A DNA stretch of 64,000 nt, taken from IMG/VR virus record IMGVR_UViG_3300042922_001018. One strand, written 5' to 3'. Under the pieces are notes generated by a model. It saw only the letters and a list, made by a program, of their open reading frames with translations, ran no database searches and had not been told where the DNA came from. Both the position numbers and the translations under genes were made by a program. Below are positions 26,188 to 49,433 of this stretch, one piece after another; the stretch's first letter is position 1; every line of letters begins with the position of its first letter. This DNA comes from a virus (Duplodnaviria > Heunggongvirae > Uroviricota > Caudoviricetes).

Positions 26188-26687
26188 AGGGCGCTCCTAG
26201 CGGTCAGAAGGTACTCTACAGAGACGCCAGAGACCCACAACTCGCGCAGCTCCGCAACGTTCGTGATGCCAGCCCGCATCAGAGACTCGATGAACGTGCC
26301 GGAGACACGCTCTTCTATGAAGGTACGAGCTTGTCGCCGCGAAAGCAGCGCCTCAGACCCACGCAGTTCCCAGCCGTTCGTCGTCAAGCGACCCCACGCG
26401 GCTGCGTCCGGGGCAGACGCTCGCTGTCGCAGCATGAGAGGCGTCGCGATGATGCGGCCCACTCCGTCTGGAACGAATGTCGGAGCGGAATCCTTCCACA
26501 TCTCAGCGACCGTATCCGAACCGGTCACAGCAGTCAGGTACGAGTTCACGAGGTCTGGCTTGCCGTTGAAGCTTTCACGGATGTCCCGGACTTCTGTCGG
26601 TGTGGGCCGAAGCCCACGCTTCAGCCCCTTGCTGGGACTCCACGCCCAACGGCGTACATAGTCCTCGAAGGAGAGAAGCTCGGTCAC
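26184..26687 (-). CDS. Array family protein, divergent (167 aa)
   Basis: RAGITNVAELRELWVSGVSVEYLLTARSAL. Confidence 0.5.
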   Translation of the reverse strand: MTELLSFEDYVRRWAWSPSKGLKRGLRPTPTEVRDIRESFNGKPDLVNSYLTAVTGSDTVAEMWKDSAPTFVPDGVGRIIATPLMLRQRASAPDAAAWGRLTTNGWELRGSEALLSRRQARTFIEERVSGTFIESLMRAGITNVAELRELWVSGVSVEYLLTARSAL

Positions 26688-26718
26688 CTCATCAGACTAC
26701 AGCAGCGGCGGTCCTGAG

Positions 26719-27429
26719 TCAAGGTGTGTACGCGGCAGGAAGAACCACGCGCCACTGCAAGCTACCCTCGACCATGGTGAAGCCTTCAGCCTCGAACAGC
26801 TTCACCATGCCAGGCAGATGGGCCGCACCCCAGTACAGAACGTGGGCGGGTGCGCTGGAGAACATCACGCTGCTCACAGCGTATTCGTTCCGGCGGTGCA
26901 GAATGTTCTTGGACAAGTCGCCGCCGATGAAGAGGCTGAGGAACCCCGGCATGACGGGCAGTAGGCGAAGCATCGCGAGAACCGTGTCCGGAGACGACTT
27001 CAAGATGTCGAGGTCCATGCGCCCGAGCTTCTCCAGGCGCCGGACGGTACGCGGCTTTAGAGCGCGGGCGATGTCGAGAGCCGACATATCTACCGGAATC
27101 CAGCGGGCATCCGCAGCAGCGAAAGCGTCTTTCTGGTACACGAGGCCAGTGGTCTCAGCGAGCAGCTTGCTCACGTCGCCCAGGGTAGTGATGGTGTTCA
27201 GGCGCGCCTGCTCCTCGGCGGTCACCTTCTCGGAGACCGGGCGGACGCCTTCCAGGTGAATGGTCCGGCCTTCGGCTTCCCACCGCCTCAACATGGCGAT
27301 GTCATGGTCCCAGGAATCCTGCGTAGCGACATGCTGGACGGCGACGAGCGTTACCGTATGCCCGTACGAGTTCCGGAGGAGGACCGTGCCCATCTCCGAA
27401 CCGCGCGCGGTTCGACGAGTGTACTTCAT
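26719..27429 (-). CDS. Possible TraB/GumN (TIKI)-like family protein inserted in the array
   Basis: 236 aa; C-terminal LYWGAAHLPGMVKLFEAEGFTMVEG resembles the GumN [AV]GAAHL.G motif; weak assignment. Confidence 0.4.
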   Translation of the reverse strand: MKYTRRTARGSEMGTVLLRNSYGHTVTLVAVQHVATQDSWDHDIAMLRRWEAEGRTIHLEGVRPVSEKVTAEEQARLNTITTLGDVSKLLAETTGLVYQKDAFAAADARWIPVDMSALDIARALKPRTVRRLEKLGRMDLDILKSSPDTVLAMLRLLPVMPGFLSLFIGGDLSKNILHRRNEYAVSSVMFSSAPAHVLYWGAAHLPGMVKLFEAEGFTMVEGSLQWRVVLPAAYTP

Positions 27430-28019
27430 GCGTCCAAGACTAGCATGCCCTCCGCGAGGAGCGTCTGAGCGTATTCGTAGGCGATTCCCGTGCGATGCAA
27501 CGCGATGACTTCGTCGATGCTCTTCATCGTCATCGTGGGGCGATAGAACAGGGCGGCAAACTCAGGGGGTACTCCGCCTCGGTGGAAACGGCGAGCGGCG
27601 ATGACCGGACGAGACTTCAGGACGTATTCGCTGCGTTCACCAGCCTTGCCGAAGGGGAGAAAGAGCCGCGCCCAGATGGCCGCTTCTGGCTCCCGAGGGT
27701 CAAGACGAAGCATGAGCGGGAGCATCAGTGCGTCGTAGACTCGGCCGATTTGGCGAGTCGTACTTTCGGGGATGTAATGGTTTCGCTCGGACATGTGCAG
27801 CCAGGTGAGGCCCGATACGTCGGCGGTGGCGTATGCGTTCAGGTAGCCGTGCAGAACGTCGATGTCGTCATGGAAGCTGGCGTACAGCGCTGCGCGCTTT
27901 CTTCCCGGCGCGAGCGCATGCTCTGAGACCCAGAAGTCGATGAACGCGCGCAGCGCTTCTTTCGGGTCATCGGGCCGCTTCATGTCAAAACCGTACCACT
28001 TTCGGTACGGTTTTGACAA
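27426..28019 (-). CDS. Array subfamily A protein (197 aa)
   Basis: ASFHDDIDVLHGYL...DPREPEAAIWARLFLP...RGGVPPEFAALF...TGIAYEYAQTLL. Confidence 0.6.
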   Translation of the reverse strand: MSKPYRKWYGFDMKRPDDPKEALRAFIDFWVSEHALAPGRKRAALYASFHDDIDVLHGYLNAYATADVSGLTWLHMSERNHYIPESTTRQIGRVYDALMLPLMLRLDPREPEAAIWARLFLPFGKAGERSEYVLKSRPVIAARRFHRGGVPPEFAALFYRPTMTMKSIDEVIALHRTGIAYEYAQTLLAEGMLVLDA

Positions 28020-28020
28020 G

Positions 28021-28557
28021 TCACCAGCTCTCGCTGAGCGCGATGCGCACGTACTCGGGCGCGAGTCCCTCGTGGTATGCAGAGATGATGAGGCGCTGCG
28101 TTGGACCTTTCATCCCCCGCACGTAGTACGTGGCAGCGTACGCCGCAGGCACTCCAGCTCGATGGAAGCGTCGCGCTGCGATGACCGCTTGGGACTTCAC
28201 GGAACAGTCGGCGTATTCGTCCGTCGGGAGGAATAGGCGTGCCCACTCCGCCACCTCGTCTTCACGCGGGTCAAGGCCCAGCATCGAGGGGAGCATGATG
28301 GCTTCGGCGAGACGGCCGACCTGAGCAGTGACGGCACGCGAAGGATGCGGCATAACGCGTCCCGGCTCGAACCGTTGCCAGAGCAGCTCGCGTACGTCTA
28401 CTCCGACGTATCGGGCTAGGTAGCCGTAGAGGACTTCAACATCATGATGGAAGCTCGCACGGATGCGGTGGCGCTTCTCCGAAGCTGTCATGCTGTACCC
28501 GAGCCAATAGTCGGTCAACATGCGCAGCATCACTGAATGCTGCCGCGCTGTGTCCAT
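28021..28557 (-). CDS. Array subfamily A protein (178 aa)
   Basis: ASFHHDVEVLYGYL...DPREDEVAEWARLFLP...RAGVPAAYAATY...EGLAPEYVRIAL. Confidence 0.6.
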   Translation of the reverse strand: MDTARQHSVMLRMLTDYWLGYSMTASEKRHRIRASFHHDVEVLYGYLARYVGVDVRELLWQRFEPGRVMPHPSRAVTAQVGRLAEAIMLPSMLGLDPREDEVAEWARLFLPTDEYADCSVKSQAVIAARRFHRAGVPAAYAATYYVRGMKGPTQRLIISAYHEGLAPEYVRIALSESW

Positions 28558-28589
28558 GACAGAATCATCTCATTTCTGAGTCGTTTTTG

Positions 28590-29105
28590 TCAACCCGGAT
28601 AGATGGCGAGCCGAGCGTACTCCAGTGGCGTTCCCTCTTCGTACGCGGTAACCACAGCGTCTACGGGGATGTACGCGTGAAGCTGCGGCGGGTCGAACGC
28701 CTGGAAGTAGGAGAGGGGAACGCCGCTGTTGATAGCGTGCCGCACGGCATCAGAGGACCGGAATCTGGTCACTTCGTCGAAGCCGCCTCGCGCCGTCTGC
28801 GCGACACGGGAGGTGGCGAACTTCGCCCATTCGGCGGTCTCAGGGTCTCGCGGGTCCATCTTGTAGTCGTCAGGGAACGTCAGCGTTTCGACACGGTCCG
28901 CGATGAGGTCAGCGTCACGGATTTCCGGGATGTCGTTGTCCCACTCGATGTAGACGAAGGGGACTTCCTGCTCCCCGAACACTCGTCGCAGGTAGGTAAT
29001 GAGCGTCTCGTATTCACCGTAGAGCGTGAGGAGGGCGTCCTTCCGCTGAGGTACCCACGCTCCGAGAATCTCCTCCAGCGTATTGTCGATGCCTGAGCGG
29101 CTCAC
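28590..29105 (-). CDS. Array subfamily A protein (GTG start overlapping upstream stop, GTGA)
   Basis: DPRDPETAEWAKFA...SGVPLSYFQAFDPPQLHAYIPVDAVVTAYEEGTPLEYARLAI. Confidence 0.55.
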   Translation of the reverse strand: MSRSGIDNTLEEILGAWVPQRKDALLTLYGEYETLITYLRRVFGEQEVPFVYIEWDNDIPEIRDADLIADRVETLTFPDDYKMDPRDPETAEWAKFATSRVAQTARGGFDEVTRFRSSDAVRHAINSGVPLSYFQAFDPPQLHAYIPVDAVVTAYEEGTPLEYARLAIYPG

Positions 29106-29596
29106 AGCACGACGCTCAGGTAATCGGCGGGGACACCTTCGCGCCATCCTGCGATGACATCAGTGGTCGGGTACTCACCCCACGGCGCCGTGACGCTGTT
29201 CGCATAGCTCAGCGGTACGCCCGCATCGAGCAGCAGGAACATGTCGTCCGTATCCGGGAACCGCGGGAACGTCCGATACTTGCCGGTCTCCTCGTCGAAG
29301 ATGACCCGCTCGGCAGCAAACACAGCCCAAGCCGCGGTCTCTGCGTCACGCGGGTCCATCCCGCTGCGCACCGGGAAAAGGACGACATCCCCAGGAGTCG
29401 GCTGGTCGATTCCGTGGTTGCCGGTGAGCGCTTGGTCCGCCCAGTCGCCGTAGACGCGCGAGAAGTAGTCCTTGAACACCAGGGCGTCATGGTGGAAGGC
29501 TTCGAGTGTGCTCCACACGCTGACTCGGGGAACATGCTTCTCGACCAGCTCTCGCAGGTCGGTCTTATCGTCTATCAAGTCCAGTAGCTTCGTCAT
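29102..29596 (-). CDS. Array subfamily A protein (start trimmed to MTKLLDLIDD)
   Basis: EAFHHDALVFKDYF...GMDPRDAETAAWAVFA...AGVPLSYANSV...EGVPADYLSVVL. Confidence 0.55.
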   Translation of the reverse strand: MTKLLDLIDDKTDLRELVEKHVPRVSVWSTLEAFHHDALVFKDYFSRVYGDWADQALTGNHGIDQPTPGDVVLFPVRSGMDPRDAETAAWAVFAAERVIFDEETGKYRTFPRFPDTDDMFLLLDAGVPLSYANSVTAPWGEYPTTDVIAGWREGVPADYLSVVL

Positions 29597-30114
29597 GCTG
29601 ACCCTCCGTAGATGATTTCCTGCGCATACTCGACCGCCAGACCCTCTGCGTGTGCCTGGAAGATGCGCTCCAAGGGAAGCTTCTCGCCCCAGTAGGTAAC
29701 GTCGAGAGCCTTCACGTAAGCGAGTGAGACACCGCGCTCGCAGAGCTGCCGCGTGTTCCAGGCGGGAGCGTCGAAACGGCTGAGCGGCATGTAAGCATCC
29801 GGATGTATCTCGATGCTGCGGTGAATAGCGAACGCCGCCCACTCGCCGGTCTCTGGAGACCTGGGGTCCAGACCGCTGAGGAACGGGAATGTGAGGGCTT
29901 CCGGAAGGTCACCGATGGTGGCGAGAATCGCATCTGCCGAGTCGAAGCCGTCCATGACGAGTTTCGTGTTCTTCCCGTAGATGAGAGTCAGGTACTCGCG
30001 CAGCACGTCGAGGTCGTCATGGAAAGACTCCACGTAGGACGCCGTGCTGTTGTCCTTGACCCACCGGCCGATGATGTTGGTCACGGCGCTCGCGTGCTCG
30101 CCCCGTCGGCTCAT
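29593..30114 (-). CDS. Array subfamily A protein (173 aa)
   Basis: ESFHDDLDVLREYL...GLDPRSPETGEWAAFA...RGVSLAYVKAL...EGLAVEYAQEII. Confidence 0.6.
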   Translation of the reverse strand: MSRRGEHASAVTNIIGRWVKDNSTASYVESFHDDLDVLREYLTLIYGKNTKLVMDGFDSADAILATIGDLPEALTFPFLSGLDPRSPETGEWAAFAIHRSIEIHPDAYMPLSRFDAPAWNTRQLCERGVSLAYVKALDVTYWGEKLPLERIFQAHAEGLAVEYAQEIIYGGSA

Positions 30115-30665
30115 GTGCTCACTCCGTAGATAGCTTCGCGCGCGTACTCGACAGGGATGTCAGAGTTCCAGGCGTCGATGATGGCGTCCAATGGGAACAG
30201 GGGCGTCGGACCACAGTCGAGTGCTTTCAGGTAATCGAACGGGATGTCCGCAAGGCGAATACGTCGGTAGGCTTCGGCCGGGTCGCCGAACCGGCCCACG
30301 AACTGAATCTCGGGGTCCGGGAACACCGTATCCCAGCGGTGGCAGAGGAAGTGCGCCCATTCGCTTGTGGAAGGGTCACGCGGGTCCAACCCCGTGAGGG
30401 CAGGGAGCATCAAAGCTTCGCGGATGTCGGCGATGTAACGAGCGGGCTGCTTCTGAACGTCCGTATCGCAGTCCATGACGGCGTACGCCTGGCTGCCGTA
30501 GAGACCGAGGAGGTATCGGCGGAGCACCCAGTAGTCGCGGTCGTAGGTATCCAGGTGAGGTTCGATGTCCACGTCGGTAAGCCAGTGAGACAGCACCTCA
30601 AACAACTGCGCCTCGTTCGTCTCACCGGGGAGACGGGTCTCGGTGCGGAAGCCCTTATCGCTCAC
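30111..30665 (-). CDS. Array subfamily A protein (GTG start, GTGA overlap)
   Basis: GLDPRDPSTSEWAHFL...ADIPFDYLKALDCGPTPLFPLDAIIDAWNSDIPVEYAREAI. Confidence 0.55.
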   Translation of the reverse strand: MSDKGFRTETRLPGETNEAQLFEVLSHWLTDVDIEPHLDTYDRDYWVLRRYLLGLYGSQAYAVMDCDTDVQKQPARYIADIREALMLPALTGLDPRDPSTSEWAHFLCHRWDTVFPDPEIQFVGRFGDPAEAYRRIRLADIPFDYLKALDCGPTPLFPLDAIIDAWNSDIPVEYAREAIYGVST

Positions 30666-31240
30666 GGCTTCGCTCCGTACAGAAGCTCGCGCGCGTACTC
30701 CACGGCGATACCCGACTGGTACAGAGGGATGATGCGTCCGACCGGCATCTTCTTCCGCCACGAGTCGGTATCCAGCGCAAGGGCGTACTCCAGGGGAACA
30801 CCGGCCTTATAGAGCTGGACGACCTCCCCTTGCTCCGCACGCTGACGGTACTCGTAGGTGCCACCCGCGTGGTGCGGTACGAAAGCCTTCGCCCACCGGA
30901 CCGTCTCCGGGTCGCTCGGGTCCATGCCCATCCGTGAGGGGAATGCGAGTAGCGACGGCATGTCTTCCATAAGGGCGGCGCCCATCGGCTTGCCGTGTCG
31001 GTCCCAGATGGCTTGGTGAATGTTCCAGCCGGAGTGAGCAACGAGGTACGCGTCCAACGTGTCCGCATCCTTGAAGCTCGCGATGATGTCGTCGAACTCC
31101 GACGGGAACACTACCCCGGAGACGAGGGGAGGGTTTTGAGCCGCGTCCGCCTTCGGAGTGCACCAGAACTCGACGAGGTCGGAGACGCGCCGGTTAGCAG
31201 GCGGCGCCTCGCCCGGCATGAGGCGACGCGAGAATGGCAT
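30662..31240 (-). CDS. Array subfamily A protein (192 aa)
   Basis: GMDPSDPETVRWAKAF...AGVPLEYALALDTDSWRKKMPVGRIIPLYQSGIAVEYAREL. Confidence 0.6.
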   Translation of the reverse strand: MPFSRRLMPGEAPPANRRVSDLVEFWCTPKADAAQNPPLVSGVVFPSEFDDIIASFKDADTLDAYLVAHSGWNIHQAIWDRHGKPMGAALMEDMPSLLAFPSRMGMDPSDPETVRWAKAFVPHHAGGTYEYRQRAEQGEVVQLYKAGVPLEYALALDTDSWRKKMPVGRIIPLYQSGIAVEYARELLYGAKP

Positions 31241-31272
31241 ATCGCCATCGTACCCCGATGTCTATGCCGGTG

Positions 31273-31464
31273 TCAACCGCCGTTCAGCGCGTTGACGACG
31301 AACCCGATGAGGAGCACGACGCCGAACACTCCGAGTACGACGTACTGGATGCGGTTTGCGAGCAGGAACCGCTGGAAAGTCTTCTTCTGCGCTTCCTCTG
31401 TGACAGCGCGAGTATACTCGGTCGGTTCGGTGGAGTGGGGGTCGAAGTCCGCGGGGCGTTCCAT
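31273..31464 (-). CDS. small membrane protein (63 aa)
   Basis: C-terminal TM YVVLGVFGVVLLIGFVVNAL; divergent from the SPFH gene. Confidence 0.35.
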   Translation of the reverse strand: MERPADFDPHSTEPTEYTRAVTEEAQKKTFQRFLLANRIQYVVLGVFGVVLLIGFVVNALNGG

Positions 31465-31513
31465 CTCTACATCCTACCGGATGGTTTCGGGAAACATGCG
31501 ATAGACTGCCACC

Positions 31514-32500
31514 ATGACAGAAGAGACAGCTCCCGCAGTAGTGGTCATCGACCGCTCCGCCCGCCGCACCGAAGTCGAAGCGAAGGTTCGGGTCGCCGAG
31601 AAGTCGGCTCCGACTGTCGGCCAGGGGCCGACCATCATCGTGCTCATCCTCGCCTCGCTGGCGGGACTCTTCTCCATCTTCAAGGTGGGAGAGGGTATCG
31701 TCACCTCGTTCATCGCCTCGCAGACCTACGGCGCGGTGGCGCCGAGCCAGTCGTACTGGTGGTGGCTGGTCGTGTCCGTCGTCGCCTTTATTCTGCTCGG
31801 GTTCGTGAACTTCCAGCACCCGAACTCCGCCCGTGTGTTCACCCTCTTCGGCAACTACATCGGCACGGTCTCGAAGACCGGCCTCTACATGGTCCCTGTC
31901 CCTTTCCTCGCGAGCACCGCCCTCAGCCTGGCACAAGCAAACTTCGAGAGCGCCTCGCTGAAAATCAACGACAAGCGCGGCAACCCGCTTTCCGTCTCGG
32001 CCATCGTCGTCTATCGAGTGAACAACCCCGCGCAGGCCATCTTCAGCGTCGCGAACTACACCTCCTACCTCGCCACCCAGGTGGAGGCCGCGCTTCGTCA
32101 GGCTGTCGCTCAGCACCCGTACTCGTCGGCGAAGGAGGGCGAGTCTTCGCTCCTGCTGAACAGCGACGAAATCAACGACCAGCTCACGGCCGAAATCGCT
32201 GAGGCTGTGGTCGTCGCCGGAATCGAAATCGTCGAGGCCCGTATCAACAACCTCGCCTACAGTGTGGAGATTGCCCAGGCCATGCTCCAGGTTCAGGCGG
32301 CTGAGGCTATCCTCGAAGCCCGTGAAGTTCTCGTGGAAGGCAGCGTCGGCATCGTCGAGAAGGCGGTCGAGCGCCTGGAGGCGGGAACCGACGGGCACAA
32401 GCCCACCGTCTTCAACGATGAGCAGCGCGTGAAGCTGACGACCAACCTGCTGACAGTCCTCGTGGGCGAGCGCTCGGCTCAGCCGGTCATCGAACTGTAA
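31514..32500 (+). CDS. SPFH/band-7 (stomatin/prohibitin/flotillin-like) membrane protein
   Basis: 328 aa; N-terminal TMs then an SPFH-like core (...KINDKRGNPLSVSAIVVYRV...) and C-terminal Ala/Glu-rich coiled coil; the only plus-strand gene interrupting the array. Confidence 0.75.
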   Translation: MTEETAPAVVVIDRSARRTEVEAKVRVAEKSAPTVGQGPTIIVLILASLAGLFSIFKVGEGIVTSFIASQTYGAVAPSQSYWWWLVVSVVAFILLGFVNFQHPNSARVFTLFGNYIGTVSKTGLYMVPVPFLASTALSLAQANFESASLKINDKRGNPLSVSAIVVYRVNNPAQAIFSVANYTSYLATQVEAALRQAVAQHPYSSAKEGESSLLLNSDEINDQLTAEIAEAVVVAGIEIVEARINNLAYSVEIAQAMLQVQAAEAILEAREVLVEGSVGIVEKAVERLEAGTDGHKPTVFNDEQRVKLTTNLLTVLVGERSAQPVIEL

Positions 32501-32504
32501 GCCG

Positions 32505-32551
32505 AAACGAGAATGCCCCGACCGCATCGCGTGGTCGGGGCATTCTCGTTT
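32505..32551. terminator. Bidirectional rho-independent terminator (19-bp perfect stem, 9-nt loop, flanking A/T tracts)
   Basis: AAACGAGAATGCCCCGACC-gcatcgcgt-GGTCGGGGCATTCTCGTTT, 5 nt after the SPFH stop. Confidence 0.75.
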
Positions 32552-32553
32552 CG

Positions 32554-32694
32554 TTAGACGGTACCGGTTGGATAGACGGTCGCCTGGCCGTGGTCCAGGA
32601 CGATGACTGTCACGCTCTCGGAGAACGGGGCGCTCTGCGCTCGGAGTTCGGCGCCGACCGTCTCGGTCGGGCGTTCATGCTGAGAATCTTCCAT
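32554..32694 (-). CDS. possible small ORF (46 aa)
   Basis: MEDSQHERPTETVGAELRAQSAPFSESVTVIVLDHGQATVYPTGTV; not in the supplied track; weak. Confidence 0.2.
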   Translation of the reverse strand: MEDSQHERPTETVGAELRAQSAPFSESVTVIVLDHGQATVYPTGTV

Positions 32695-32721
32695 AGCCCT
32701 ACGCTAGCGCGGAGCAGTTCG

Positions 32722-33300
32722 TTACGCAAGCGCCCAGGCGTATTCGGGAGTGACGCCCTGCTGATACAGGTCGCGGACTGTCACTGCCGGGTATCTAGCG
32801 TCGGGACCAGGGTCGAGCGCGCGAAGGTAATCTAGGGGCACTCCCGCCTCTCGCAGCCACCGAAGTTCGACGAATGAGACACGCGGGCTGTAGTTCGGGG
32901 AGTGTCGCCCGTCTCGGTTCGGGAGCAGCCTGGGCGCGAAGAACGTCGCCCACCCTCGCGCCTCGTCCGGCTCCATTCCCACGGCTGCGGGGAACTGGAT
33001 GAGCGTCGGAATGTCGTCACGGAGGTCATTGACCATCCAGTACGATTTGAGGCTGGCAGGCGGGTCGTAGAGCGATACGAGAGAGTGCTTGTGGACGCGT
33101 CCGTCGGTCACGTCGGAGAGGAAGGAGAGGATGCTCGCGAGGTCATGGTCGAAGCTCTCCTTGACCAGTTCTTCGGTCTCCTCGACTGTCTGACCTACGG
33201 TGAGCCAGGAACGGCCAAGCCAGGTAGAGACGAAATCGTCAAGCAGCGGGTCGAGGTGCTGTTGCAGCTTCGTCCGCCGGTTGTGATTCCGCTTCGGCAA
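32722..33300 (-). CDS. Array subfamily A protein (192 aa), first member of the array
   Basis: ESFDHDLASILSFL...GMEPDEARGWATFF...EAGVPLDYLRALDPGPDARYPAVTVRDLYQQGVTPEYAWALA. Confidence 0.6.
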   Translation of the reverse strand: MPKRNHNRRTKLQQHLDPLLDDFVSTWLGRSWLTVGQTVEETEELVKESFDHDLASILSFLSDVTDGRVHKHSLVSLYDPPASLKSYWMVNDLRDDIPTLIQFPAAVGMEPDEARGWATFFAPRLLPNRDGRHSPNYSPRVSFVELRWLREAGVPLDYLRALDPGPDARYPAVTVRDLYQQGVTPEYAWALA

Positions 33301-33830: not shown

Positions 33831-35036
33831 TTACGAGTAGATTTCCTGGAGGTCTTCAGCTACCTGCGCCCAGGTGATGCCGGAAGGAAGAACGAAACCG
33901 GAAGGCTGGTTCCCTGCATACCACGCGGAGCCACCCGTTGCCGGACGGGTGCGCATGACGGACGCCGAGTTGTCCGCCGGACCGACCCACGCATACTGGA
34001 CGGAAGGGTCCGAGGTCGTGGAGGAACCTGAGAAGAACGAGGCGTTCTCGCCCAGCTCGTAGGAAAGGTTCGTGACACGAGCGATGTCGTCGCCTGCGGC
34101 GAACCGCGCGCCTACCGTAACAAGCTGAGGGACATGAAGCTGATTGAAGTCGGTGAGCGTCTGGCGTGGCGTCAGCGTCACAGTGCGCTCAACACGCTGC
34201 CATCCAGATTCTCCGGTGAAGGTGAAGTTGTTCTGGTACGTGGTGCCGTTGGCGCCGTTGATGGGAAGCTCGACCCGCATTGTGGTACCCGCGAGCTGGG
34301 CGGGGAGCCAGATGTCCATGCCGAATGTGACCGTCTGCGACGTGGTCGCTGGGAGCGTGAGGACCGTGCCGCCGTTACCGCCGAGACGTGTTCGGAACGC
34401 CTGCGAAGAGCCATCAGATGAGGCCACTCGCAGCGACCCAGCATTCTCACCGTTCGGCCCAGCACCCGCCTCGAAGACGACGTTCGAGCTGTACCCGCCA
34501 GGGTTCTGGACGTAGTACGTGAGGCCACCCGGCGCCGCATTCGGGTTCGGAAGAAGGTTGCGGCGGGACTCCGCCCACGCACCATACGAGGAGGAACCGT
34601 TGAAGCCGGAAATCTCGAAGATGTCGCCACCTTCAGAACTCCGCGCGTAGACAGCGCCGCTGGCGCTCTTCGTTACAGCAACCCACCCCGCACCGGAAGA
34701 GCGTACGATGGTATTGGTTCCTTCGGACGGCGTGAACCCGATGGCTGCGTCCTGCAACTCAGTGTCCTGCGTGCCGACGTTCGGACCGTAGGACATCGTT
34801 CCGTAGCCGTCGTTCTGCACCATGTACGCGGCTTGCGCGGTCGCGATACGGTCGAGGTCACCCTTCGCGTTGAGGTTGTGTGCGTTCGAGATGAAGCCGG
34901 AGATGGCGAAGGAACCGCCCACGAGCAGGATGAGCGTGATAGCGATGCCCGCGATGATGAGAATGGGGTCAGTTGCGCCGCGCTCCTCGCGCAAACGCGC
35001 GATTTCGGCCTTGCGGGCCTTCAGCCGCTCCATCAT
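33831..35036 (-). CDS. TadE/pseudopilin-like signal-anchor protein, cassette 4 of 4 (401 aa)
   Basis: MMERLKARKAEIARLREERGATDPILIIAGIAITLILLVGGSFAISGFISNAHNLNAKGDLDRIATAQAAY...; conserved C-terminus LPSGITWAQVAEDLQEIYS. Confidence 0.65.
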   Translation of the reverse strand: MMERLKARKAEIARLREERGATDPILIIAGIAITLILLVGGSFAISGFISNAHNLNAKGDLDRIATAQAAYMVQNDGYGTMSYGPNVGTQDTELQDAAIGFTPSEGTNTIVRSSGAGWVAVTKSASGAVYARSSEGGDIFEISGFNGSSSYGAWAESRRNLLPNPNAAPGGLTYYVQNPGGYSSNVVFEAGAGPNGENAGSLRVASSDGSSQAFRTRLGGNGGTVLTLPATTSQTVTFGMDIWLPAQLAGTTMRVELPINGANGTTYQNNFTFTGESGWQRVERTVTLTPRQTLTDFNQLHVPQLVTVGARFAAGDDIARVTNLSYELGENASFFSGSSTTSDPSVQYAWVGPADNSASVMRTRPATGGSAWYAGNQPSGFVLPSGITWAQVAEDLQEIYS

Positions 35037-36235
35037 GAGTTCACATCCCGGAGGTCAGCGGAGACATCATCCCAGGAGATACCGGCGGGGAGGTTCAGGT
35101 CAGCGGGCTTCGCCGAAGGCAGCCACACCTGTCCGGCGCCGGGCAGAAGCGACCGCGTCTCGCGGACAGATGTCGAGCTGTTCTCCGCTCCAGTCCAGCG
35201 TGAACGCTCCGTGGCGGAGCCAGTGCTCGAACCGTCCATGTAAGCACCCTGAGTGCCTTCGAACAGACCCACGGAGTCCCACTTGATGCGGCTGGGCGAA
35301 CCTGCGGTGTCGCCGCCGTACAGGCGAATGGTGTTGTAACCGGTGAAGGCCGCAGGCGTAGTGAACGCGCCAGTGAGGGTGCGCGTGCCTGCCGTGTTCA
35401 CGCCCTGGAAGAGTCCGACCTGCGTGCCATTGAGGTGGACGAAGAGGGAGACCTTCTGTTCCAGACCGGTGGTAGCGCCTGCGGCGATAGAAGTGAACGG
35501 AGCGTCGAGCGTGTACGTGGCCGTGATGGTGTATGTCGTGGAAGGCTTCAGGGAGTTCGCTCCGGTGCCACCACGACCGCCTTCGACGGAACTGATGATG
35601 TCGGCGTATGCGTCTGTATTGGCGTCGGCAGTACGCGTCAAGGCCAGCGAGTAATCGCCGGAGGCTGCCCCCGCAGCCACTCGTGCGCCGGTCACGCGGT
35701 TGTAGCTGACGCCGCTGAGGTCGTTCTCGAAGGAAGGGTTCCGGATGAGGTTACGACGAGTCTCGGTCCACGCGGTGTAACCGTCCGGGTCCGGCCCCAT
35801 TTCGCCGTTCATCTCGAACGTCTTGGCGCTCTCCGATGTGCGAACGAAGACCTTGCCGGAGGCCGACTTCGTAGCCGCTACCCAGCCGTCAGCAGAAGTG
35901 CGGACGACCGTGGAGTTCCCGGCCGTCGGGGTGAAACCGATGGCTGAGTTCTGAAGCTCCGTATTCTGGGCCGCGACATTCGGACCGACGGCGAGCGCAC
36001 CGTACCGGTCGTTGGACGCGAGATACGCGGCCTGGGCGGTCGCGACACGGTCGAGGTCACCCTTCGCGTTCAGGTCATTCGCGTTCGCGATGAAACCGCT
36101 GATGGCGAAGGAACCACCGACGAGCAGGATGAGTGTGATTGCGATACCCGCGATGATGAGGATGGGGTCGGTCGCACCGCGCTCCTCGCGCAGGCGCGCG
36201 ATTTCGGCCTTACGGGCTTTGAGTCGTTCAAGCAT
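35033..36235 (-). CDS. TadE/pseudopilin-like signal-anchor protein, cassette 3 of 4 (400 aa)
   Basis: Near-identical first ~120 aa; C-terminus LPAGISWDDVSADLRDVNS; ATGA overlap with the upstream gene. Confidence 0.65.
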   Translation of the reverse strand: MLERLKARKAEIARLREERGATDPILIIAGIAITLILLVGGSFAISGFIANANDLNAKGDLDRVATAQAAYLASNDRYGALAVGPNVAAQNTELQNSAIGFTPTAGNSTVVRTSADGWVAATKSASGKVFVRTSESAKTFEMNGEMGPDPDGYTAWTETRRNLIRNPSFENDLSGVSYNRVTGARVAAGAASGDYSLALTRTADANTDAYADIISSVEGGRGGTGANSLKPSTTYTITATYTLDAPFTSIAAGATTGLEQKVSLFVHLNGTQVGLFQGVNTAGTRTLTGAFTTPAAFTGYNTIRLYGGDTAGSPSRIKWDSVGLFEGTQGAYMDGSSTGSATERSRWTGAENSSTSVRETRSLLPGAGQVWLPSAKPADLNLPAGISWDDVSADLRDVNS

Positions 36236-37377
36236 TACTGCACCTCCGCTGCGTCAGCGCCCACCTGTTGCCAGGTGATACCCGCGGGGAGCGTGAAGCC
36301 CGCTGGCTGATTCGCGATGATAGGACGGACGCTCTTGATAGAAGCGGAGTTGTTGACCGTTCCGGCCCAGGAGTAGACCGCGTCCGCTGTAGCGGGCGTA
36401 GACCCACTGAAGAAGTCGCGAGACGGGTCGTAGTCGCCGGGGTACAGGTCGATGGAAGAGATGTCCATGAACCAACCGGGAGTCTTGGAAGACGGCGTGG
36501 TGACGATACGTGCGTCGGAACCGCTCGCGGCATCACGGACGAATGTCGTCCATACCCGGACGGTCGTGCCAGCGGCAAGAGACCATGCCGATGAGTTCGA
36601 TGATGCTACGAGTGTCGAATCCCCGACCGTGCCGGAGAACCCCATCTGAGACATGTTCGTGGCGCCGGAGACTCGCACATCGTAGGCGATGGTGTAGCGC
36701 TCCCCGACAGGAGCCGCGGAGATGAGGGGACCAGTGTTACCCGAGCCGCTGCTCGCGACGGCGGTCCATGTAGCGCGGACTGCCGACCCACTCGGCGCCC
36801 ACGGCGCGGCGACAACCGACCGCTCATAGACGTTCCCAGCGTTACCTGCCCATCCACCGAAGGAGCTGCCGAGCGTAGCGTTCGAGTTCGGGAAAAGGTT
36901 CCGTGTGGCTTCGGCCGGTTCGCCGTACTGCGGATTGGACGAATCTGCTCCCAGCTTGAAGATTGTGCTGGAGGAGGACGAGCGGAGGAACACGTCGCCG
37001 GAGGCGCTCTTCGTCACGGCTGTCCATCCGCTTGGCGAAGTGCGCACCTTTACGTTGTTGCCCGCAGTCGGCGTGAACCCGATGGCCGCGTCAGCAAGCT
37101 CCGTGTTCTGAGTCGCAACATCAGGACCGACCGACAAGTTGCCGTAGCGGTCGTTGGTCGCGAGGAACGCGGCCTGGGCGGTAGCGATGCGGTCGAGGTC
37201 GCCCTTGGCGTTCAGGTCATTCGCGTTCGCGATGAAACCGGAGATAGCGAAGGAACCGCCAACGAGCAAGATGAGGGTAATCGCGATACCCGCGATGATG
37301 AGGATGGGGTCGGTGGCACCGCGCTCCTCGCGCAGGCGTGTGATTTCGGCCTTACGAGCCTTCAGTCGTTCAAGCAT
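36235..37377 (-). CDS. TadE/pseudopilin-like signal-anchor protein, cassette 2 of 4 (380 aa)
   Basis: SD GGAGG 7 nt upstream; TAATG overlap with the upstream gene; C-terminus LPAGITWQQVGADAAEVQ. Confidence 0.65.
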   Translation of the reverse strand: MLERLKARKAEITRLREERGATDPILIIAGIAITLILLVGGSFAISGFIANANDLNAKGDLDRIATAQAAFLATNDRYGNLSVGPDVATQNTELADAAIGFTPTAGNNVKVRTSPSGWTAVTKSASGDVFLRSSSSSTIFKLGADSSNPQYGEPAEATRNLFPNSNATLGSSFGGWAGNAGNVYERSVVAAPWAPSGSAVRATWTAVASSGSGNTGPLISAAPVGERYTIAYDVRVSGATNMSQMGFSGTVGDSTLVASSNSSAWSLAAGTTVRVWTTFVRDAASGSDARIVTTPSSKTPGWFMDISSIDLYPGDYDPSRDFFSGSTPATADAVYSWAGTVNNSASIKSVRPIIANQPAGFTLPAGITWQQVGADAAEVQ

Positions 37378-38543
37378 TACTGTACCTCCGCGGCATCAGT
37401 TCCTACCTGCTCCCAGGAGATGCCAGAAGGAAGCGAGACACCAGTCGGCATGTTCGCGATGATGGGACGGATGCTCTTGATGGAAGCCGAGCTGTTCGCG
37501 GGGCCAGCCCAGCCATAGTCGGTGCTGACCGTGTCGGCAGAAGCGCCGCTGAAGAAAGTACGTCCCGCCTGGTAGTCGCCCGCGTAAAGGTCGAAGTCAG
37601 AAGACTCGATGGACTGTCCCGAGATGACTCCGGTCAGGCCGCTGTGGAGGCGCATCGAGCTGACGGCAAGCGCAGCAGGAGTCCCGGTGGCCGTGAAGGT
37701 GACGTAGACCACGGTAGGCGTGTTCGCGGGGACAGCGCGGCTTCCGCTGCGCTCATGCACGGTAACTGTCATGCCCGTACCGGTCTGGTCGATGCTCGGC
37801 TGGTTCAGGTTGAAGGCGCGAGTCGAGAAGACCTTGAAGGCGAGAGTCATCTTCTCACCGAGAACGTAGCTGCCGCCCAGGTACGGCGTGGGTCCACCGA
37901 AGGTCGCGCCCACAGTCGTGTACGTCGCTCGAAGAGCGCGGCCGTTCGTGCTCCATGACACAGCCGGGTTGGACGTGGTGACGGTGGACGCGTTCGCCCA
38001 GTAGTTCATGTCCGTGGAGGTGGCAGCGTCCGGGTTGCGGTACAGGTTCCGGGTGTCTTCCTGAGCTGCACCGTACTGCGGGTTGTCGGCGTCAGTACCG
38101 AGCTGGTGAACCTGGGTGGACTGAGAGGTGCGGAGGAAGATGTCCCCAGAGGCGCTCTTCGTGACAGCCGTCCAGCCGCTCGGCGAGGTGCGGACCTTGA
38201 TGCTGTTGCCTGCGGTCGGCGTGAACCCAATCGCCGACTCTGCCAGCTCGTTCGATGCGCCGGAAACATTCGGACCGATGGCCAGGTTGCCGTACCGGTC
38301 GTTCGCTGCGAGGAACGCAGCCTGCGCCGTGGCGACTCGGTCGAGGTCACCCTTCGCGTTGAGGTTGTTCGCGTTCGCGATGAAGCCGGAGATGGCGAAA
38401 GAACCACCCACGAGCAGGATGAGGGTAATCGCGATACCCGCGATGATGAGGATGGGGTCGGTGGCACCGCGCTCTTCGCGGAGGCGGGTGATTTCCGCCT
38501 TCTTAGCTTTCAGGCGCGCAAGCATGGGGAGAGGCCGTGACAT
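37377..38543 (-). CDS. TadE/pseudopilin-like signal-anchor protein, cassette 1 of 4 (start 38543 or 38525)
   Basis: MSRPLPMLARLKAKKAEITRLREERGATDPILIIAGIAITLILLVGGSFAISGF...; C-terminus LPSGISWEQVGTDAAEVQ. Confidence 0.65.
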   Translation of the reverse strand: MSRPLPMLARLKAKKAEITRLREERGATDPILIIAGIAITLILLVGGSFAISGFIANANNLNAKGDLDRVATAQAAFLAANDRYGNLAIGPNVSGASNELAESAIGFTPTAGNSIKVRTSPSGWTAVTKSASGDIFLRTSQSTQVHQLGTDADNPQYGAAQEDTRNLYRNPDAATSTDMNYWANASTVTTSNPAVSWSTNGRALRATYTTVGATFGGPTPYLGGSYVLGEKMTLAFKVFSTRAFNLNQPSIDQTGTGMTVTVHERSGSRAVPANTPTVVYVTFTATGTPAALAVSSMRLHSGLTGVISGQSIESSDFDLYAGDYQAGRTFFSGASADTVSTDYGWAGPANSSASIKSIRPIIANMPTGVSLPSGISWEQVGTDAAEVQ

Positions 38544-38696: not shown

Positions 38697-39299
38697 GTGC
38701 CCAATACCGTAACTGCCGATGAGATTCTGAAGGCCATCCGTTTCCGCCACAACAAGGCTGCCATCGTCAGCGAAGTGGTTGTCACCGATGAGTTCGAGAT
38801 GGCGATTGCTCGGCGATACTGGGCGGACCGCCACCCTCGGTACACCGCGCGTGAGCTGGCGCGCTATGCCGAGAAAGGCGAGGTCGTTGCGGACTTCGTC
38901 CCGGAAGGCTGGGTGATGAACGACTCGAAGCTCATCCGGCGTATCGACGGACTGATGCTGGAAGGCGGCAAGTACACGGCCATCGAAATCAAGGTGAGCC
39001 GCGCCGACTTCAAGCGGGACACGGAAGAGAAGCGCCGGATGTGGCGTAGCATTACGCATCGCTTCGTCTACGCTGTGCCGAAAGGTCTCGTGGACCCGAG
39101 TGAACTCCCGCCGTACGCGGGTCTGTGGGAGTATGACCCGACGGCGCACTACAGCTCGCAGATTGCCAGTGCGAAACGTGCAGCGACGAACAAGCAGTGT
39201 GAGCCGATGCCGCAGCAAGTCGTCACCGCGATGTTCTACCGGAGCGCCCGCGCTGAACAGGCCAAGGTCGGCCGCGCGCGTCGTACTCGCACTCGTTAA
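38697..39299 (+). CDS. PD-(D/E)xK family nuclease (200 aa)
   Basis: RIDGLMLEG...TAIEIKVSRADFKRD matches the D...E.K catalytic signature of the restriction-endonuclease-like fold; basic C-terminal tail. Confidence 0.5.
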   Translation: MPNTVTADEILKAIRFRHNKAAIVSEVVVTDEFEMAIARRYWADRHPRYTARELARYAEKGEVVADFVPEGWVMNDSKLIRRIDGLMLEGGKYTAIEIKVSRADFKRDTEEKRRMWRSITHRFVYAVPKGLVDPSELPPYAGLWEYDPTAHYSSQIASAKRAATNKQCEPMPQQVVTAMFYRSARAEQAKVGRARRTRTR

Positions 39300-41064: not shown

Positions 41065-42461
41065 TCCCCGACGACCGTCTCCAGCACATCGGCGATGTAC
41101 GCGTCTGAGTCCATCGCGTAGCTGACGTTACGGACCATCAGATTGTCGATGAAGAACACGCTCGTCCGGAACTCGACAGTAGCCTCGGCATCCACGAACG
41201 AGTCCACACCGTTGCCGCTATAGACATCGACCTTCTCACAGAGGACACCATCATCCTGCGCGACGCAAGGAACGCCTGAAGCGTCCAGTTCTGCGACCGC
41301 TTCGCGAACCGCGTCGGGGCTGAGAGATGCAACGTTGGTGAAAACGTGCCCGGTGTCACTGCCGCCGCCCGCATCTGTCCAGACGCATGACACCCACTCA
41401 CGGCTACCGTACGGCTCGGGGAAGAAACTCTCGGGCGAGAAGACCCAATTCTCCGCGTTGTCGCCGCGAATGGCCGGGTCGGCGCTGCTTGCCTCCGTCA
41501 GGTAGTTCGCCAGCTCCCCACGGTAGCTGCCCTCCGTCAACTCGCCGCACGTCATCGGAACGTCTCGCTTCTGGCCGAAGGTGAGCCGCGGCGGGGCTTC
41601 CCAGGTCGCCATCCATTCCGCTAGCTCCTCGCGGCCCGTCTCGGCATCCGAGAAGTACGAGTTGTGCGGGCCACCGTTGAACGCGATGCCAGGCAGCCAC
41701 GCGGGGCCGGGTGCGCAGAAGTTGTCTCCGTCGATGCAGTAAGCGAAAGTGTCCGCCTCGGCGTACACGGCCTCAGTGGGAAGCGTTCGGTCGTCCTGTG
41801 TGAAAGAGGTCATCCCAGCCCAGTAGTTGAAGATGCCGTTGTGGTCTGCGCCAGACCCACGGACAACGTCATGCTGAGTCTGCGTCAGGTCGCCGATGAC
41901 CATGACCTTCCCGAAGAAATCAGGAATCAGGTCGTACGCGATACGCGATGCTACCGCGCCCTGACTGAACCCGAAGATACCGTACTCGGCGGATGCGCAC
42001 CCCGACTGGGCTTCCGCACCGCGGTCAGTTGCCAGCTTACGCGCAGTAGCCGCGGCACCTCGCGCACCCGAGTCGTAGATGTGCCAGAGCGCTCGCGAGA
42101 CGTGCCCACCTTTCACCATGCCATCGAGATAGCCGCCCGCAACGCCCTCTAGGGGACTGATTGCTTCGTAACCCAGGTCGGGACTCATCGCCGTGACCTT
42201 CGTTCGGGTCACGAGCGCTTCGTCTTCCTCAATGACCTCCGTAGCGCGGGCGAGAATCTCGCCTTCCCACCCATCGGAAAGCTCGGATTTCTCTACCTGT
42301 GCTTCCCCGCTCCCCCGGAGGAAGTAGAGGCTGTACGCCGCGCAGTCGCCTACGAGAACTTCAGGTACTTCGGGAGCTGTGCTCGCCGTAGCAGGCGACG
42401 CCGCGACAACCGAGACGGCCAGCGAGACGGCCGCAACCGCTGCCAGAGTAAACCGCTTCAT
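41061..42461 (-). CDS. secreted serine esterase, cutinase/alpha-beta-hydrolase-like (466 aa)
   Basis: Signal peptide MKRFTLAAVAAVSLAVSVVAASPATA; nucleophile-elbow GFSQGA (G-x-S-x-G, cutinase/PE-PPE-like). Confidence 0.55.
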   Translation of the reverse strand: MKRFTLAAVAAVSLAVSVVAASPATASTAPEVPEVLVGDCAAYSLYFLRGSGEAQVEKSELSDGWEGEILARATEVIEEDEALVTRTKVTAMSPDLGYEAISPLEGVAGGYLDGMVKGGHVSRALWHIYDSGARGAAATARKLATDRGAEAQSGCASAEYGIFGFSQGAVASRIAYDLIPDFFGKVMVIGDLTQTQHDVVRGSGADHNGIFNYWAGMTSFTQDDRTLPTEAVYAEADTFAYCIDGDNFCAPGPAWLPGIAFNGGPHNSYFSDAETGREELAEWMATWEAPPRLTFGQKRDVPMTCGELTEGSYRGELANYLTEASSADPAIRGDNAENWVFSPESFFPEPYGSREWVSCVWTDAGGGSDTGHVFTNVASLSPDAVREAVAELDASGVPCVAQDDGVLCEKVDVYSGNGVDSFVDAEATVEFRTSVFFIDNLMVRNVSYAMDSDAYIADVLETVVGD

Positions 42462-43270
42462 TTCTTGTCCCGCTTCCGACGAATGAGTACGGCTGCCGTG
42501 ATGATGCCGCCCACGACCAGGAGCGAGCCGACTGCGGCGAAGATGATGACTAAGCCGTCGGGCGGCGCCGTCACGGTCAAGGGCAGCTCCGTTGCGGAGC
42601 CATCAGTTGCGACCAGCAGGACGGCGTAGTCACCGGACTCGATGTCCGCGGGCAAGGATAGCGACCATGTACCGTCTCCCGTGAATGGACCGAACTCGCC
42701 CATGCTCTCAGCCGACGACCATGGGTCGGCGCTTGCGGGGACAATCATGACCAGCAGGCTAGCGTCTACGGCCAGAGGCCCAGAGACTGTTACCTCTTCC
42801 CCTGGCGATGCGGACTCCGGGGCCAGCGAGTACCCCTCGGCGATACGCGCGCCGTCCTCAGGCGAGGAAGGCGGTCCGAGAACTTCAACCCCAGGGATGA
42901 CGGTCTCGGCTGTCGTCTCAGCGATGCGGCCGAACCCGTCTTCTACCTGGAGGCGGACGGGGTACGTACCTGCTTCCTCGAAGCGATGCTCACCGATACC
43001 GGTGTCGTTCTCTTCGTCCCACACGCCGTCCGCGTCGTAGTCGAAACGGTAGGTCATGTCCACCGGGTAGCCGTGGTTACTGCACATCCCGCTGAACAGT
43101 GTGGGCAATGAGGCCGGGGCTTCAACGACATCGAGCACGGCGTTCATCGTCTCGGACTTGTACGCAGCCGGGTCGATACAGGACTCGTCCTCCGCCGCGG
43201 CGTTAGCAGCAGACGGGAACAGGAGAGAGCCGATGAGCGCGAGCGCGGCGACAGCAGGGAGAGCCTTCAC
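42458..43270 (-). CDS. surface protein with PKD-like domain and C-terminal TM anchor (270 aa)
   Basis: Signal peptide ...PSAANAA; YDADGVWDEENDTGIGEHRFEEAGTYPVRLQVEDGFG (PKD-like); C-terminal LVIIFAAVGSLLVVGGIITAAVLIRRKRDKK. Confidence 0.55.
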   Translation of the reverse strand: MKALPAVAALALIGSLLFPSAANAAAEDESCIDPAAYKSETMNAVLDVVEAPASLPTLFSGMCSNHGYPVDMTYRFDYDADGVWDEENDTGIGEHRFEEAGTYPVRLQVEDGFGRIAETTAETVIPGVEVLGPPSSPEDGARIAEGYSLAPESASPGEEVTVSGPLAVDASLLVMIVPASADPWSSAESMGEFGPFTGDGTWSLSLPADIESGDYAVLLVATDGSATELPLTVTAPPDGLVIIFAAVGSLLVVGGIITAAVLIRRKRDKK

Positions 43271-48512: not shown

Positions 48513-48525
48513 CTCGGTCCCAGCA

Positions 48526-48535
48526 CGCCTACAGT
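48526..48535 (+). promoter_or_regulatory. CGCCTACAGT element (plus strand) upstream of the LRV-repeat operon, divergent from mod
   Basis: cagcaCGCCTACAGTaagaATG...gaaaggacacctcATG; TACAGT fits -10 TANNNT. Confidence 0.4.
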
Positions 48536-48539
48536 AAGA

Positions 48540-49432: not shown

Positions 49433-49433
49433 G

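Follow-up and report, generated by a model that had tools for sequence, protein, structure and literature searches.

What kind of protein is encoded by genes that begin almost identically, end alike and differ in between, and does their repetition serve to exchange one variable part for another? This question is raised by four tandem genes, here named A to D, in a 64,000-nucleotide stretch of DNA (hereafter the window; 62% G+C) from the IMG/VR virus record IMGVR_UViG_3300042922_001018, and by two relatives, E and F, that lie elsewhere in the same window. The six open reading frames exist exactly as given in a preliminary description of this DNA, in which they were taken for four tandem membrane-anchored paralogues and two further copies (Table 1). 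We consider it likely that A to D are modular pilins with modules of the lectin type, which are expressed together as a repertoire, belong to a non-canonical type IV pilus and most likely act as adhesins. This reading is based on the gene structure, on fold predictions, on the linkage to PilC, a peptidase and short pilins, on the homology of a module to phage tail proteins and on the variation between related arrays; it is from these that we infer cleavage, assembly into pili, the position in the filament, sugar binding, the ligand and the biological role.

The N-terminal module and the pilus machinery

Alignment of the six proteins yields 59 invariant columns, all located inside the first ~135 residues and described by the motif ERGA.DPILII.GIAITLIL.VGG.FA..GFI.NA...NAK.DLDR.... 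Within the tandem array, the proposed layout of conserved ends around a variable core is borne out by the protein alignment: a near-identical N-terminal part of ~140 residues is followed by a divergent core of ~170 residues and a conserved C-terminal part of ~60 residues, which is longer than the ~20 initially assigned to it. The N-terminal module of gene A is 66-83% identical to those of B to D. The C-terminal stretch (FFSGS..(Y).W.G..N.S.S...R....LP.GI.W..V..D..E), which is conserved in A to D only, can be divided into a linker motif and a tail, the latter being part of the pilin module.

A class III signal peptide consists of a hydrophilic leader that ends in Gly or Ala and some 21 mainly hydrophobic residues (PMC8179133). 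The proteins start in this way: a charged, hydrophilic leader ending in Gly (MLERLKARKAEIARLREERG in gene C) precedes 21 mostly hydrophobic residues (ATDPILIIAGIAITLILLVGG). The glycine at position -1 is present in six out of six window genes, and G20, T22, D23 and P24 are kept in at least 90% of 48 homologues; in a few relatives Gly20 is replaced by Ala. Judged by its sequence, the precursor would be cut by a prepilin peptidase after Gly20. The canonical Glu at position +5 is missing, as had been noticed before; the residue found there is Ile, and Asp+3/Pro+4 are conserved instead in at least 90% of the homologues.

The AlphaFold2 model of gene C (mean pLDDT 91.3) comprises a leader helix (residues 2-18), a helix alpha1 of 52 residues (24-75), a beta-sheet (108-148), a beta-rich module (157-373) and a C-terminal helix (388-399). 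Like in type IV pilins, an alpha1 of around 50 residues is packed on an antiparallel beta-sheet, and the fold after the helix is that of the pilin alpha-beta roll. Weak NCBIfam matches to PilA of Myxococcus extend over residues 22-168. The window proteins are therefore best read as prepilins of a non-canonical type IV pilus and not as TadE proteins. The pilin idea of the preliminary description is supported by the class-III-type signal peptide, the type IV pilin fold and the occurrence of PilC and an A24 peptidase on the same contig. The specific kinship to TadE and the Tad system has to be dropped: a match to PF07811 and the G/XXXXEY motif are both lacking, and the machinery found in relatives is of the PilB/PilT/PilC type.

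The machinery lies outside the window. Gene C is identical to a protein (P0001) encoded on the 450,372-bp JGI metagenome contig Ga0456364_0000048, of which the window represents, by coordinates, about 78-142 kb; gene counts and searches covered ~127 kb of these 450 kb. Using tblastn, no genes for PilB, PilT, PilC, A24 peptidase or FtsK were found within the window, in agreement with the earlier observation that assembly genes are absent from it. The contig does carry a PilC protein (P0079, PF00482), which is 55% identical to PilC of the Curtobacterium plasmid D40. Around 3.5 kb downstream of it there is a Peptidase_A24 gene, which is the kind of gene that the preliminary description had proposed to look for elsewhere, together with seven tandem genes for short pilins of 164-185 residues. 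The distance between these assembly genes (PilC and A24 peptidase) and the window is ~235 kb. The first ~75 residues of the seven short pilins are almost identical to those of A to D, and the short pilins end with LP.GI.W..V..DI straight after the pilin sheet, the same sequence as in the tail of A to D. Because the short pilins thus have the same N- and C-termini, the window proteins can be regarded as short pilins with an insertion of ~220 residues (module plus linker) before the C-terminal helix. In total, the ~127 kb contain 20 pilin genes, 11 modular and nine short.

A more complete set of genes is found in the cluster of plasmid D40. This cluster encodes short homologues of 166-185 residues with an RGATDPIL motif and two ATPases, one of the GspE/PilB type and one of the PilT/PilU type (264 bits to TIGR01420, over the full length). 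It also encodes a two-domain PilC/GspF protein, an A24 peptidase that lacks a methyltransferase domain, ParB and an FtsK/SpoIIIE protein. The platform protein (~400-474 residues) matches the PilC/GspF/HofC models over the full length of these models, and the ATPases match the GspE/PilB and PilT models best and TadA weakly. The scores of PilC and the ATPase against the GspF/GspE, ComGB/ComGA and PilC/PilB models are similar, and all are under the cut-offs. Together with GspK, a precedent for a domain inserted in the pilin fold, this would also fit pseudopilins of a secretion or DNA-uptake machine (like the type II secretion system or Com), the modules acting as tip plug or as substrate- or DNA-binding parts. 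We regard this as very improbable, given the retraction ATPase of the PilT/PilU family in the cluster of the relatives and considering that at least 20 pilin paralogues with lectin-like and phage-tail-like modules suit adhesion better.

Two further observations concern the pilin module as such. A pilin of D40 (L001 13864-14916) contains a similar module with W.G...S.S and YFDG motifs, inserted directly after alpha1 (in the alpha-beta loop). As the modules of the window proteins are located before the C-terminal helix, the same kind of module appears to have been grafted at two positions of the pilin fold. In addition, the profile of the pilin module retrieves groups of proteins (P0306-P0362) with other non-canonical N-termini, namely ..AENSIMQTITIAVSAILIAAGL.., MANPFLVLGGIAVG.. 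(in which the leader is wholly absent) and ..GAIDLASIMVGVII..., all followed by the helix motif NA.D.NA..DL..A. Many of these proteins are 300-670 residues long, and they suggest that there may be a wider, unannotated clade of pilin-like proteins.

Variable cores and their candidate ligands

According to the AlphaFold2 model, the core of gene C is a jelly-roll of the carbohydrate-binding module (CBM) type. Foldseek connected it to the jelly-rolls of CBM16, CBM4-2 and CBM22 (E 2.4e-7; TM 0.73-0.77, normalised to the target). When PDB sequences were searched with a profile of the full-length protein (A2), the best E was 0.2, to CBM16. Searches of the six window proteins and ten homologues against Pfam, NCBIfam and PHROGs gave nothing significant, except for CBM_4_9 in the homologue P0029 (32.4 bits versus a cut-off of 25.9); in gene D there is a weak hint of the same family (E 0.16). 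The structural check that had been proposed for the variable cores, with a jelly-roll or CBM in mind, has thus turned out positive for gene C, and no fold was assigned for A, B and D. The core profiles a/b (A5) and d (A6) gave nothing meaningful against PDB sequences.

The closest relatives in sequence are found among phage proteins. Over 167 residues the core of gene C shares 64% identity with the module at the N-terminus of P0016, a siphophage tail protein. P0016 matches phrog_1887 'tail protein' and is encoded in a run of large tail-sized genes that is followed by an M23 peptidase. A module in P0050, a minor tail protein, and the module at the C-terminus of two pilins with the canonical GFTIVELL sequence (P0045 and P0049) are 37-47% identical to the core. 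The linker [FY][FY].G...[YF].W.G..N.S.S comes after the core in each of these proteins and likewise in A to D. On account of this common linker the cores are taken as units of the same mobile kind, of which it seems to be a sign. The preliminary description had seen in the constant and variable parts a layout typical of receptor binding, which is supported by the fact that the CBM-like jelly-roll of gene C is common to phage tail proteins. It had also called the middle parts unrelated between the copies. This has to be corrected for A and B, whose cores are homologous (hhalign 99.3%); between the other pairs, profile-profile comparison of the core types detected no relation.

The presence of such modules makes the window proteins modular pilins in the sense of Raynaud et al. 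2021 (PMC8179133), in the case of gene C by its CBM16/CBM4/CBM22-like core that is also found in phage tail proteins. The inserts of A, B and D were recognised by comparison with the short pilins, and their cores would be binding modules as well.

The pilin P0045 (L039 8001-9503) carries two extra modules, the last of which is 47% identical to the core of gene C. Its gene has ribosomal-protein and translation-factor genes as neighbours and lies on an 835-kb contig of ~50% G+C that derives from a small-genome bacterium. The setting would fit an episymbiont such as Saccharibacteria as a candidate. Saccharibacteria attach to Actinobacteria via type IV pili (PMC11623550).

If real pili are formed, their ligands could also be sought in plant polysaccharides (cellulose, xylan or mannan), the pilins being adhesins that anchor Microbacteriaceae to leaves or litter. 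The solved structures nearest to the core of gene C are CBM16, which binds cellulose and glucomannan, and CBM4-2 and CBM22, which bind xylan; moreover, the cultured hosts of related elements are plant-associated Curtobacterium. Nevertheless, the nearest relatives of the core in sequence are the siphophage tail protein (64%), minor tail proteins and the pilins of the small-genome bacterium, and not glycoside hydrolases, which points to ligands in the cell envelope. We therefore hold adhesion to plant material possible, though doubtful.

Several observations weigh against pili with lectin-type modules. Neither Foldseek, used with a separate model of residues 1-160 (pLDDT 80.6), nor the sequence profile of the pilin module (A3), compared to the PDB, retrieved a pilin, and the prepilin models PF07963 and TIGR02532 did not match even at E<=1. 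The Glu at position +5, conserved in nearly all assembling pilins, is absent. An assembly ATPase was not found by tblastn in the ~127 kb of the contig, and none of the best 120 homologues of the D40 ATPase is located on Ga0456364_0000048. An insert of ~220 residues in every subunit is hard to fit in a filament shaft, which makes the place of the proteins in the pilus uncertain. The cores of A, B and D show no detectable similarity to CBMs or phage proteins, the fold assignment being for the core of gene C only. Finally, expression, cleavage and sugar binding are all predicted.

The missing Glu+5, the unmatched prepilin models, the bulky insert and the ATPase that was not found in the ~127 kb would also be in line with uncleaved surface lectins that stay anchored in the cytoplasmic membrane with type II topology, in which the N-terminus is merely a signal-anchor and the binding domain extends through the wall without any filament. 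This we consider very improbable. The helix is followed by a pilin alpha-beta roll, the Gly-1, Asp+3, Pro+4 motif is near-invariant, the insert-free short paralogues adjoin the A24 peptidase near PilC, and the pilins of relatives are encoded inside a PilB-PilT-PilC-peptidase cluster.

Operon structure, variation between arrays and a possible mode of action

The preliminary description reported direct repeats at the start of the four genes and proposed that they are substrates for recombinational shuffling. The repeats are present, but with other figures: over 300 nucleotides they are 79-85% identical to the reference copy and spaced 1142-1199 nucleotides apart, against the reported 85-90% over ~330 bp. 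In windows of 60 nucleotides, the mean pairwise DNA identity is 0.81-0.89 for nucleotides 61-240 of the genes, drops to ~0.65-0.69 for nucleotides 241-420 and is ~0.3-0.4 in the core.

All four genes are complete, lie on the same strand and have their own start codon and Shine-Dalgarno site. The stop and start codons overlap as TAATG at the A/B and B/C junctions and as ATGA at C/D. At A/B the start of gene B, which overlaps the stop of gene A, is preceded by GGAGG at a distance of 8 nucleotides, and both at A/B and at B/C a GGAGG forms part of the final, conserved codons of the preceding gene. Given the overlapping junctions and the embedded GGAGG, the array reads as a translationally coupled operon of four complete genes. 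Scans for promoter and terminator consensus sequences were uninformative. A perfect inverted repeat of 21 nucleotides with a loop of 9 nucleotides, located just downstream of a Band_7 gene (32503-32553), is probably a terminator hairpin.

The conserved 5' parts of A to D have diverged at ~30% of synonymous positions. Within the 70 most conserved codons, 14-25 of the ~65 that specify identical residues differ synonymously between A to D, and about 50% of the same codons do so when A to D are compared with E and F. The longest exact DNA matches between the copies are 18-57 nucleotides. In view of the high synonymous divergence and the short exact matches, the N-terminal identity can mainly be attributed to purifying selection on old duplicates; recent gene conversion as its source was rejected, the synonymous divergence being too high.

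Arrays of related elements differ in their composition. The order of module types is a-b-c-d in the window, a-c-c'-e-b in L006, a-d-c in L014 and (partial first gene, untyped)-d-c-e-f in L007. The array of L006, a 33-kb contig, comprises five genes and its locus is syntenic with the window (methylase, helicase, array and Band_7). The core of gene A is 66% identical to that of the first gene of L006, the core of gene B 42% to that of the fifth gene of L006 and the core of gene D 54% to that of the first gene of L007. The N-terminal similarity (69-88%) does not track the type of core. The differences imply that modules were gained, lost and reordered over evolutionary time.

Conserved 5' and 3' ends around variable cores, a copy number and order that differ among related arrays and an N-terminal similarity that is independent of the core type could also be expected if the ~300-bp repeats served as recombination substrates by which the expressed core is switched or reshuffled, like in pilE/pilS of Neisseria or the shufflon of R64. 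Such programmed variation is very unlikely for this array. The four genes are complete, coupled and on one strand, with no silent cassette among them; recurring inverted repeats of the shufflon kind were not found, although no search was aimed at recombinase genes; the degree of synonymous divergence and the shortness of the exact matches fit poorly; and tandem duplication is a general habit of the element, which carries other arrays of paralogues. For these reasons a shufflon and silent cassettes of the pilS type were both rejected. The cassette idea consequently stands in an evolutionary sense only, since related elements do differ in array length, module content and order. Judged from the compared sequences, the shuffling is one on an evolutionary timescale and not a programmed switch.

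With the lectin-type modular pilins as the preferred reading, the following mode of action can be proposed. Genes A to D would be co-transcribed and translationally coupled, and the 20-residue leader ending in Gly would be cut by the element's own A24 peptidase, which has no methyltransferase domain. With leader and pilin module constant, every paralogue might be accepted by this peptidase and polymerised by one and the same PilC/ATPase machine. The pilin module consists of an alpha1 of ~52 residues, with Asp+3/Pro+4 for Glu+5, and a small beta-sheet; the beta-rich module of ~170 residues, inserted just before the C-terminal helix of the pilin and followed by the conserved linker, would be shown on the filament, probably at the tip or in low abundance owing to its bulk. 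The resulting adhesion may be of the lectin type, with four (element-wide at least 11) alternative specificities expressed in parallel. Glycans of actinobacterial cell envelopes would be the most likely targets, as is suggested by the kinship between the modules and phage tail proteins. Cells that host the element could in this way seize other cells, for instance for transfer of the element, by analogy with the PilV adhesins of IncI plasmids and with the PAPI-1 pilus. On an evolutionary timescale, the diversity would stem from duplication and divergence and from the swapping of entire modules.

In Streptococcus sanguinis, modular pilins that bear lectin modules act as tip adhesins (PMC8179133, PMC9934059), and type IV pilus adhesins of plasmids determine recipient specificity (PMC9045228, PMC5297154). 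The most far-reaching form of the proposal, which we consider unlikely, is that Microbacteriaceae harbour a giant extrachromosomal element (450-600 kb, rich in ORFans) with a retractile type IV pilus of its own, which is built from a hitherto unrecognised class of pilins without Glu5 and armed with an exchangeable set of at least 11 lectin-pilins whose modules are related to phage receptor-binding proteins, as a host-range device that seizes actinobacterial cells by their wall glycans for transfer. If true, this would be a Gram-positive counterpart of the IncI PilV system, made from phage tail parts.

The carrier element and known systems

Genes E and F have only the N-terminal module in common with A to D (55-61% identity), so that they are further copies with respect to that part; their C-terminal parts are larger and different and lack the LP.GI.W tail. 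In gene E an N-terminus of the class III type, as in A to D, is followed by a C-terminal part of ~300 residues that is 48% identical to P0030 of a related contig. Gene F encodes a pilin module, a Pro-rich linker and a beta-rich C-terminal domain of ~220 residues; its type is expanded on several metagenome contigs of 365-378 kb (relatives P0033-P0043), and the profile of this family (A8) had no meaningful match among PDB sequences. For gene A, the length would be 382 residues if the alternative start of the JGI gene call were used.

Table 1. Positions in the window of the six pilin genes, the parts of gene C and the direct DNA repeats
Feature	Position	Strand	Description	Basis
Gene A	37377-38543	-	Modular prepilin, 388 residues, module type a, first gene of the operon	Open reading frame
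Gene B	36235-37377	-	Modular prepilin, 380 residues, module type b	Open reading frame
Gene C	35033-36235	-	Modular prepilin, 400 residues, module type c (CBM-like jelly-roll)	Open reading frame, AlphaFold2, Foldseek
Gene D	33831-35036	-	Modular prepilin, 401 residues, module type d, last gene of the operon	Open reading frame
Gene E	10741-12084	-	Pilin of a second subfamily, 447 residues	Open reading frame, alignment
Gene F	9232-10629	-	Pilin of a third subfamily, 465 residues	Open reading frame, alignment
Gene C, leader peptide, residues 1-20 (MLERLKARKAEIARLREERG)	36176-36235	-	Predicted prepilin-peptidase cleavage after Gly20	
Gene C, pilin module, residues 21-150	35786-36175	-	Hydrophobic alpha1N ATDPILIIAGIAITLILLVGG, remainder of alpha1, 4-stranded sheet	
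Gene C, inserted module and linker, residues ~157-373	35117-35767	-	Starts with RRNLIRNPSFEN, ends with the linker Y.DGSS...W.G..N.S.S	
Gene C, C-terminal tail, residues 374-400 (..LNLPAGISWDDVSADLRDVNS, helix 388-399)	35036-35116	-	Part of the pilin module	
Direct DNA repeat, copy 1	34716-35015		5' part of gene D; family D1, 80% identity to the reference copy	
Direct DNA repeat, copy 2	35915-36214		5' part of gene C; reference copy	
Direct DNA repeat, copy 3	37057-37356		5' part of gene B; 85% identity to the reference copy	
Direct DNA repeat, copy 4	38205-38504		5' part of gene A; 79% identity to the reference copy	

The element appears to be rare. A blastn search with the array gave no match among phage genomes and, among plasmids, recovered only three Curtobacterium megaplasmids (545-607 kb), via the 5' repeats only. 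The pilin module had no match in 2.9 million IMG/VR contigs and was present in two out of 185,579 species genomes (pCPAA3 of C. pusillum and one metagenome-assembled genome of Microbacterium). Searches of 241 million metagenome records yielded 25 loci, and 234 clusters were obtained at E<=1e-3 among 1.84 billion representative proteins.

Few genes of the window are recognisable. Six of them (42458-43270, 53064-53792, 31514-32500, 49335-50384, 58253-59341 and 38697-39299) encode PKD-domain, peptidoglycan-binding-domain, SPFH/Band_7 and LRV-repeat proteins, a fatty-acid desaturase and an MmcB-like DNA repair protein, the last of which is the sole PHROG match among the window proteins. A DNA methylase (802 residues, N6_N4_Mtase) adjoins a ResIII/DEAD helicase (874 residues; 44038-49037), and the same pair is found upstream of the pilin array in L006. 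tRNAs were not found in the window. The region 6553-33300 is mostly made up of tandem arrays of small paralogues without a Pfam match (e.g. 25173-33300, 16321-22583, 15545-25227 and 6553-9171). The ORFan families concerned have 10, 7, 7, 4 and 3 members, several of which contain repeated G[VI]P.EY motifs, and tandem duplication followed by divergence seems to be the general architecture of the element.

Outside the window, the same contig (L004 94-3405 and 4442-6838; L037 5501-7853) encodes a pair of rIIA-like (HATPase_c_3, 806 residues) and rIIB-like proteins; an HNH endonuclease, an RF-1 domain protein and NAMPT plus a phosphoribosyltransferase also occur in L004 and L037. Genes of the rIIA/rIIB-like, HNH, RF-1 and NAMPT types are typical of very large phages. 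Nevertheless, IMG/VR yielded no relative, and the cultured relatives were deposited as circular Curtobacterium 'plasmids' of 545-607 kb, one of which was reported to have Pol III subunits and a distant terminase (PMC8929003). The element may be a plasmid, a phage-plasmid or something else.

Modular pilins are known as a means of giving type IV pili new binding functions. To our knowledge, they have been catalogued only via the canonical prepilin signature (IPR012902/PF07963), and type IV pili in Actinobacteria have hardly been studied. What sets this locus apart is a pilin lineage that escapes the standard signature (no Glu+5, Asp+3/Pro+4 and a long conserved leader), a module that is inserted and not fused C-terminally, and a scale that is undescribed for modular pilins, with at least 20 pilin genes on one replicon of which about half have different inserted modules. 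Also unusual are the sharing of a module with a phage tail protein (64% identity) and the rare giant element as the carrier. If assembled, these pilins would provide a natural test case for pilin polymerisation without Glu+5 and an example of a mobile element that borrows phage receptor-binding modules for cell recognition in Actinobacteria. The availability of cultured Curtobacterium with related plasmids makes the proposal testable.

Compared to known systems, the likeness to TadE/TadF/Flp (PF07811) is confined to a charged leader ending in Gly, a hydrophobic helix and, as in TadV, a peptidase without a methyltransferase domain. Unlike the Tad system, there is a full alpha-beta pilin head, a two-domain PilC/GspF platform (single-domain TadB/TadC in Tad) and, in relatives, a PilT-type ATPase. 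With pilE/pilS of Neisseria the array shares the several copies with conserved and variable pilin segments and the repeats between the copies. However, the pilS copies are promoterless, lack the 5' part for the N-terminus and donate to one expression locus, whereas the copies in the window all have a full N-terminus, a start codon and a Shine-Dalgarno site. In large minor pilins of the GspK and CofB/TcpB type, both the inserted domain and its position are different, and these are single-copy initiators and not a multigene repertoire. CBM16, CBM4 and CBM22 and the CBM-like modules of actinophage minor tail proteins have the same jelly-roll fold as the core of gene C, and in the tail protein the module is followed by the same linker. 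The module of gene C is attached to a pilin instead of a glycoside hydrolase or a tail protein.

The IncI1/IncI2 plasmids with PilV (R64, TP114) and the type IVb pilus of PAPI-1 (PMC5430464, PMC9045228, PMC5297154) are likewise cases of a mobile element with its own type IV pilus. PilV is a minor pilin with a constant N-terminal part and alternative C-terminal parts for surface glycans of the recipient, a split into constant and variable parts that is alike in the window. The difference is that PilV is a single gene rearranged by a shufflon recombinase at inverted repeats, whereas the genes described here are separate and complete and no inversion system was found. Besides, the PilV pili are of type IVb, whereas a PilB/PilT/PilC type of machinery goes with the pilins described here, for which a part in transfer is proposed by inference. 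In PilB (with a vWA module) and PilC (with a ConA-like lectin module) of S. sanguinis (PMC8179133, PMC9934059), as in the window pilins, a small pilin module bears a bulky binding module that is not pilus-specific. The hosts are monoderm in both cases, a lectin-type beta-sandwich would serve adhesion to glycans, and the subunits are probably minor or located at the tip. The window pilins differ by their non-canonical signal peptide (a leader of 20 residues, Asp+3/Pro+4, no Glu+5, missed by PF07963), by modules that are inserted before the C-terminal helix and not appended, and by the number of modular paralogues, at least 11 instead of two. They are arranged in coupled tandem operons, are carried by a giant extrachromosomal element and have modules in common with phage tail proteins.

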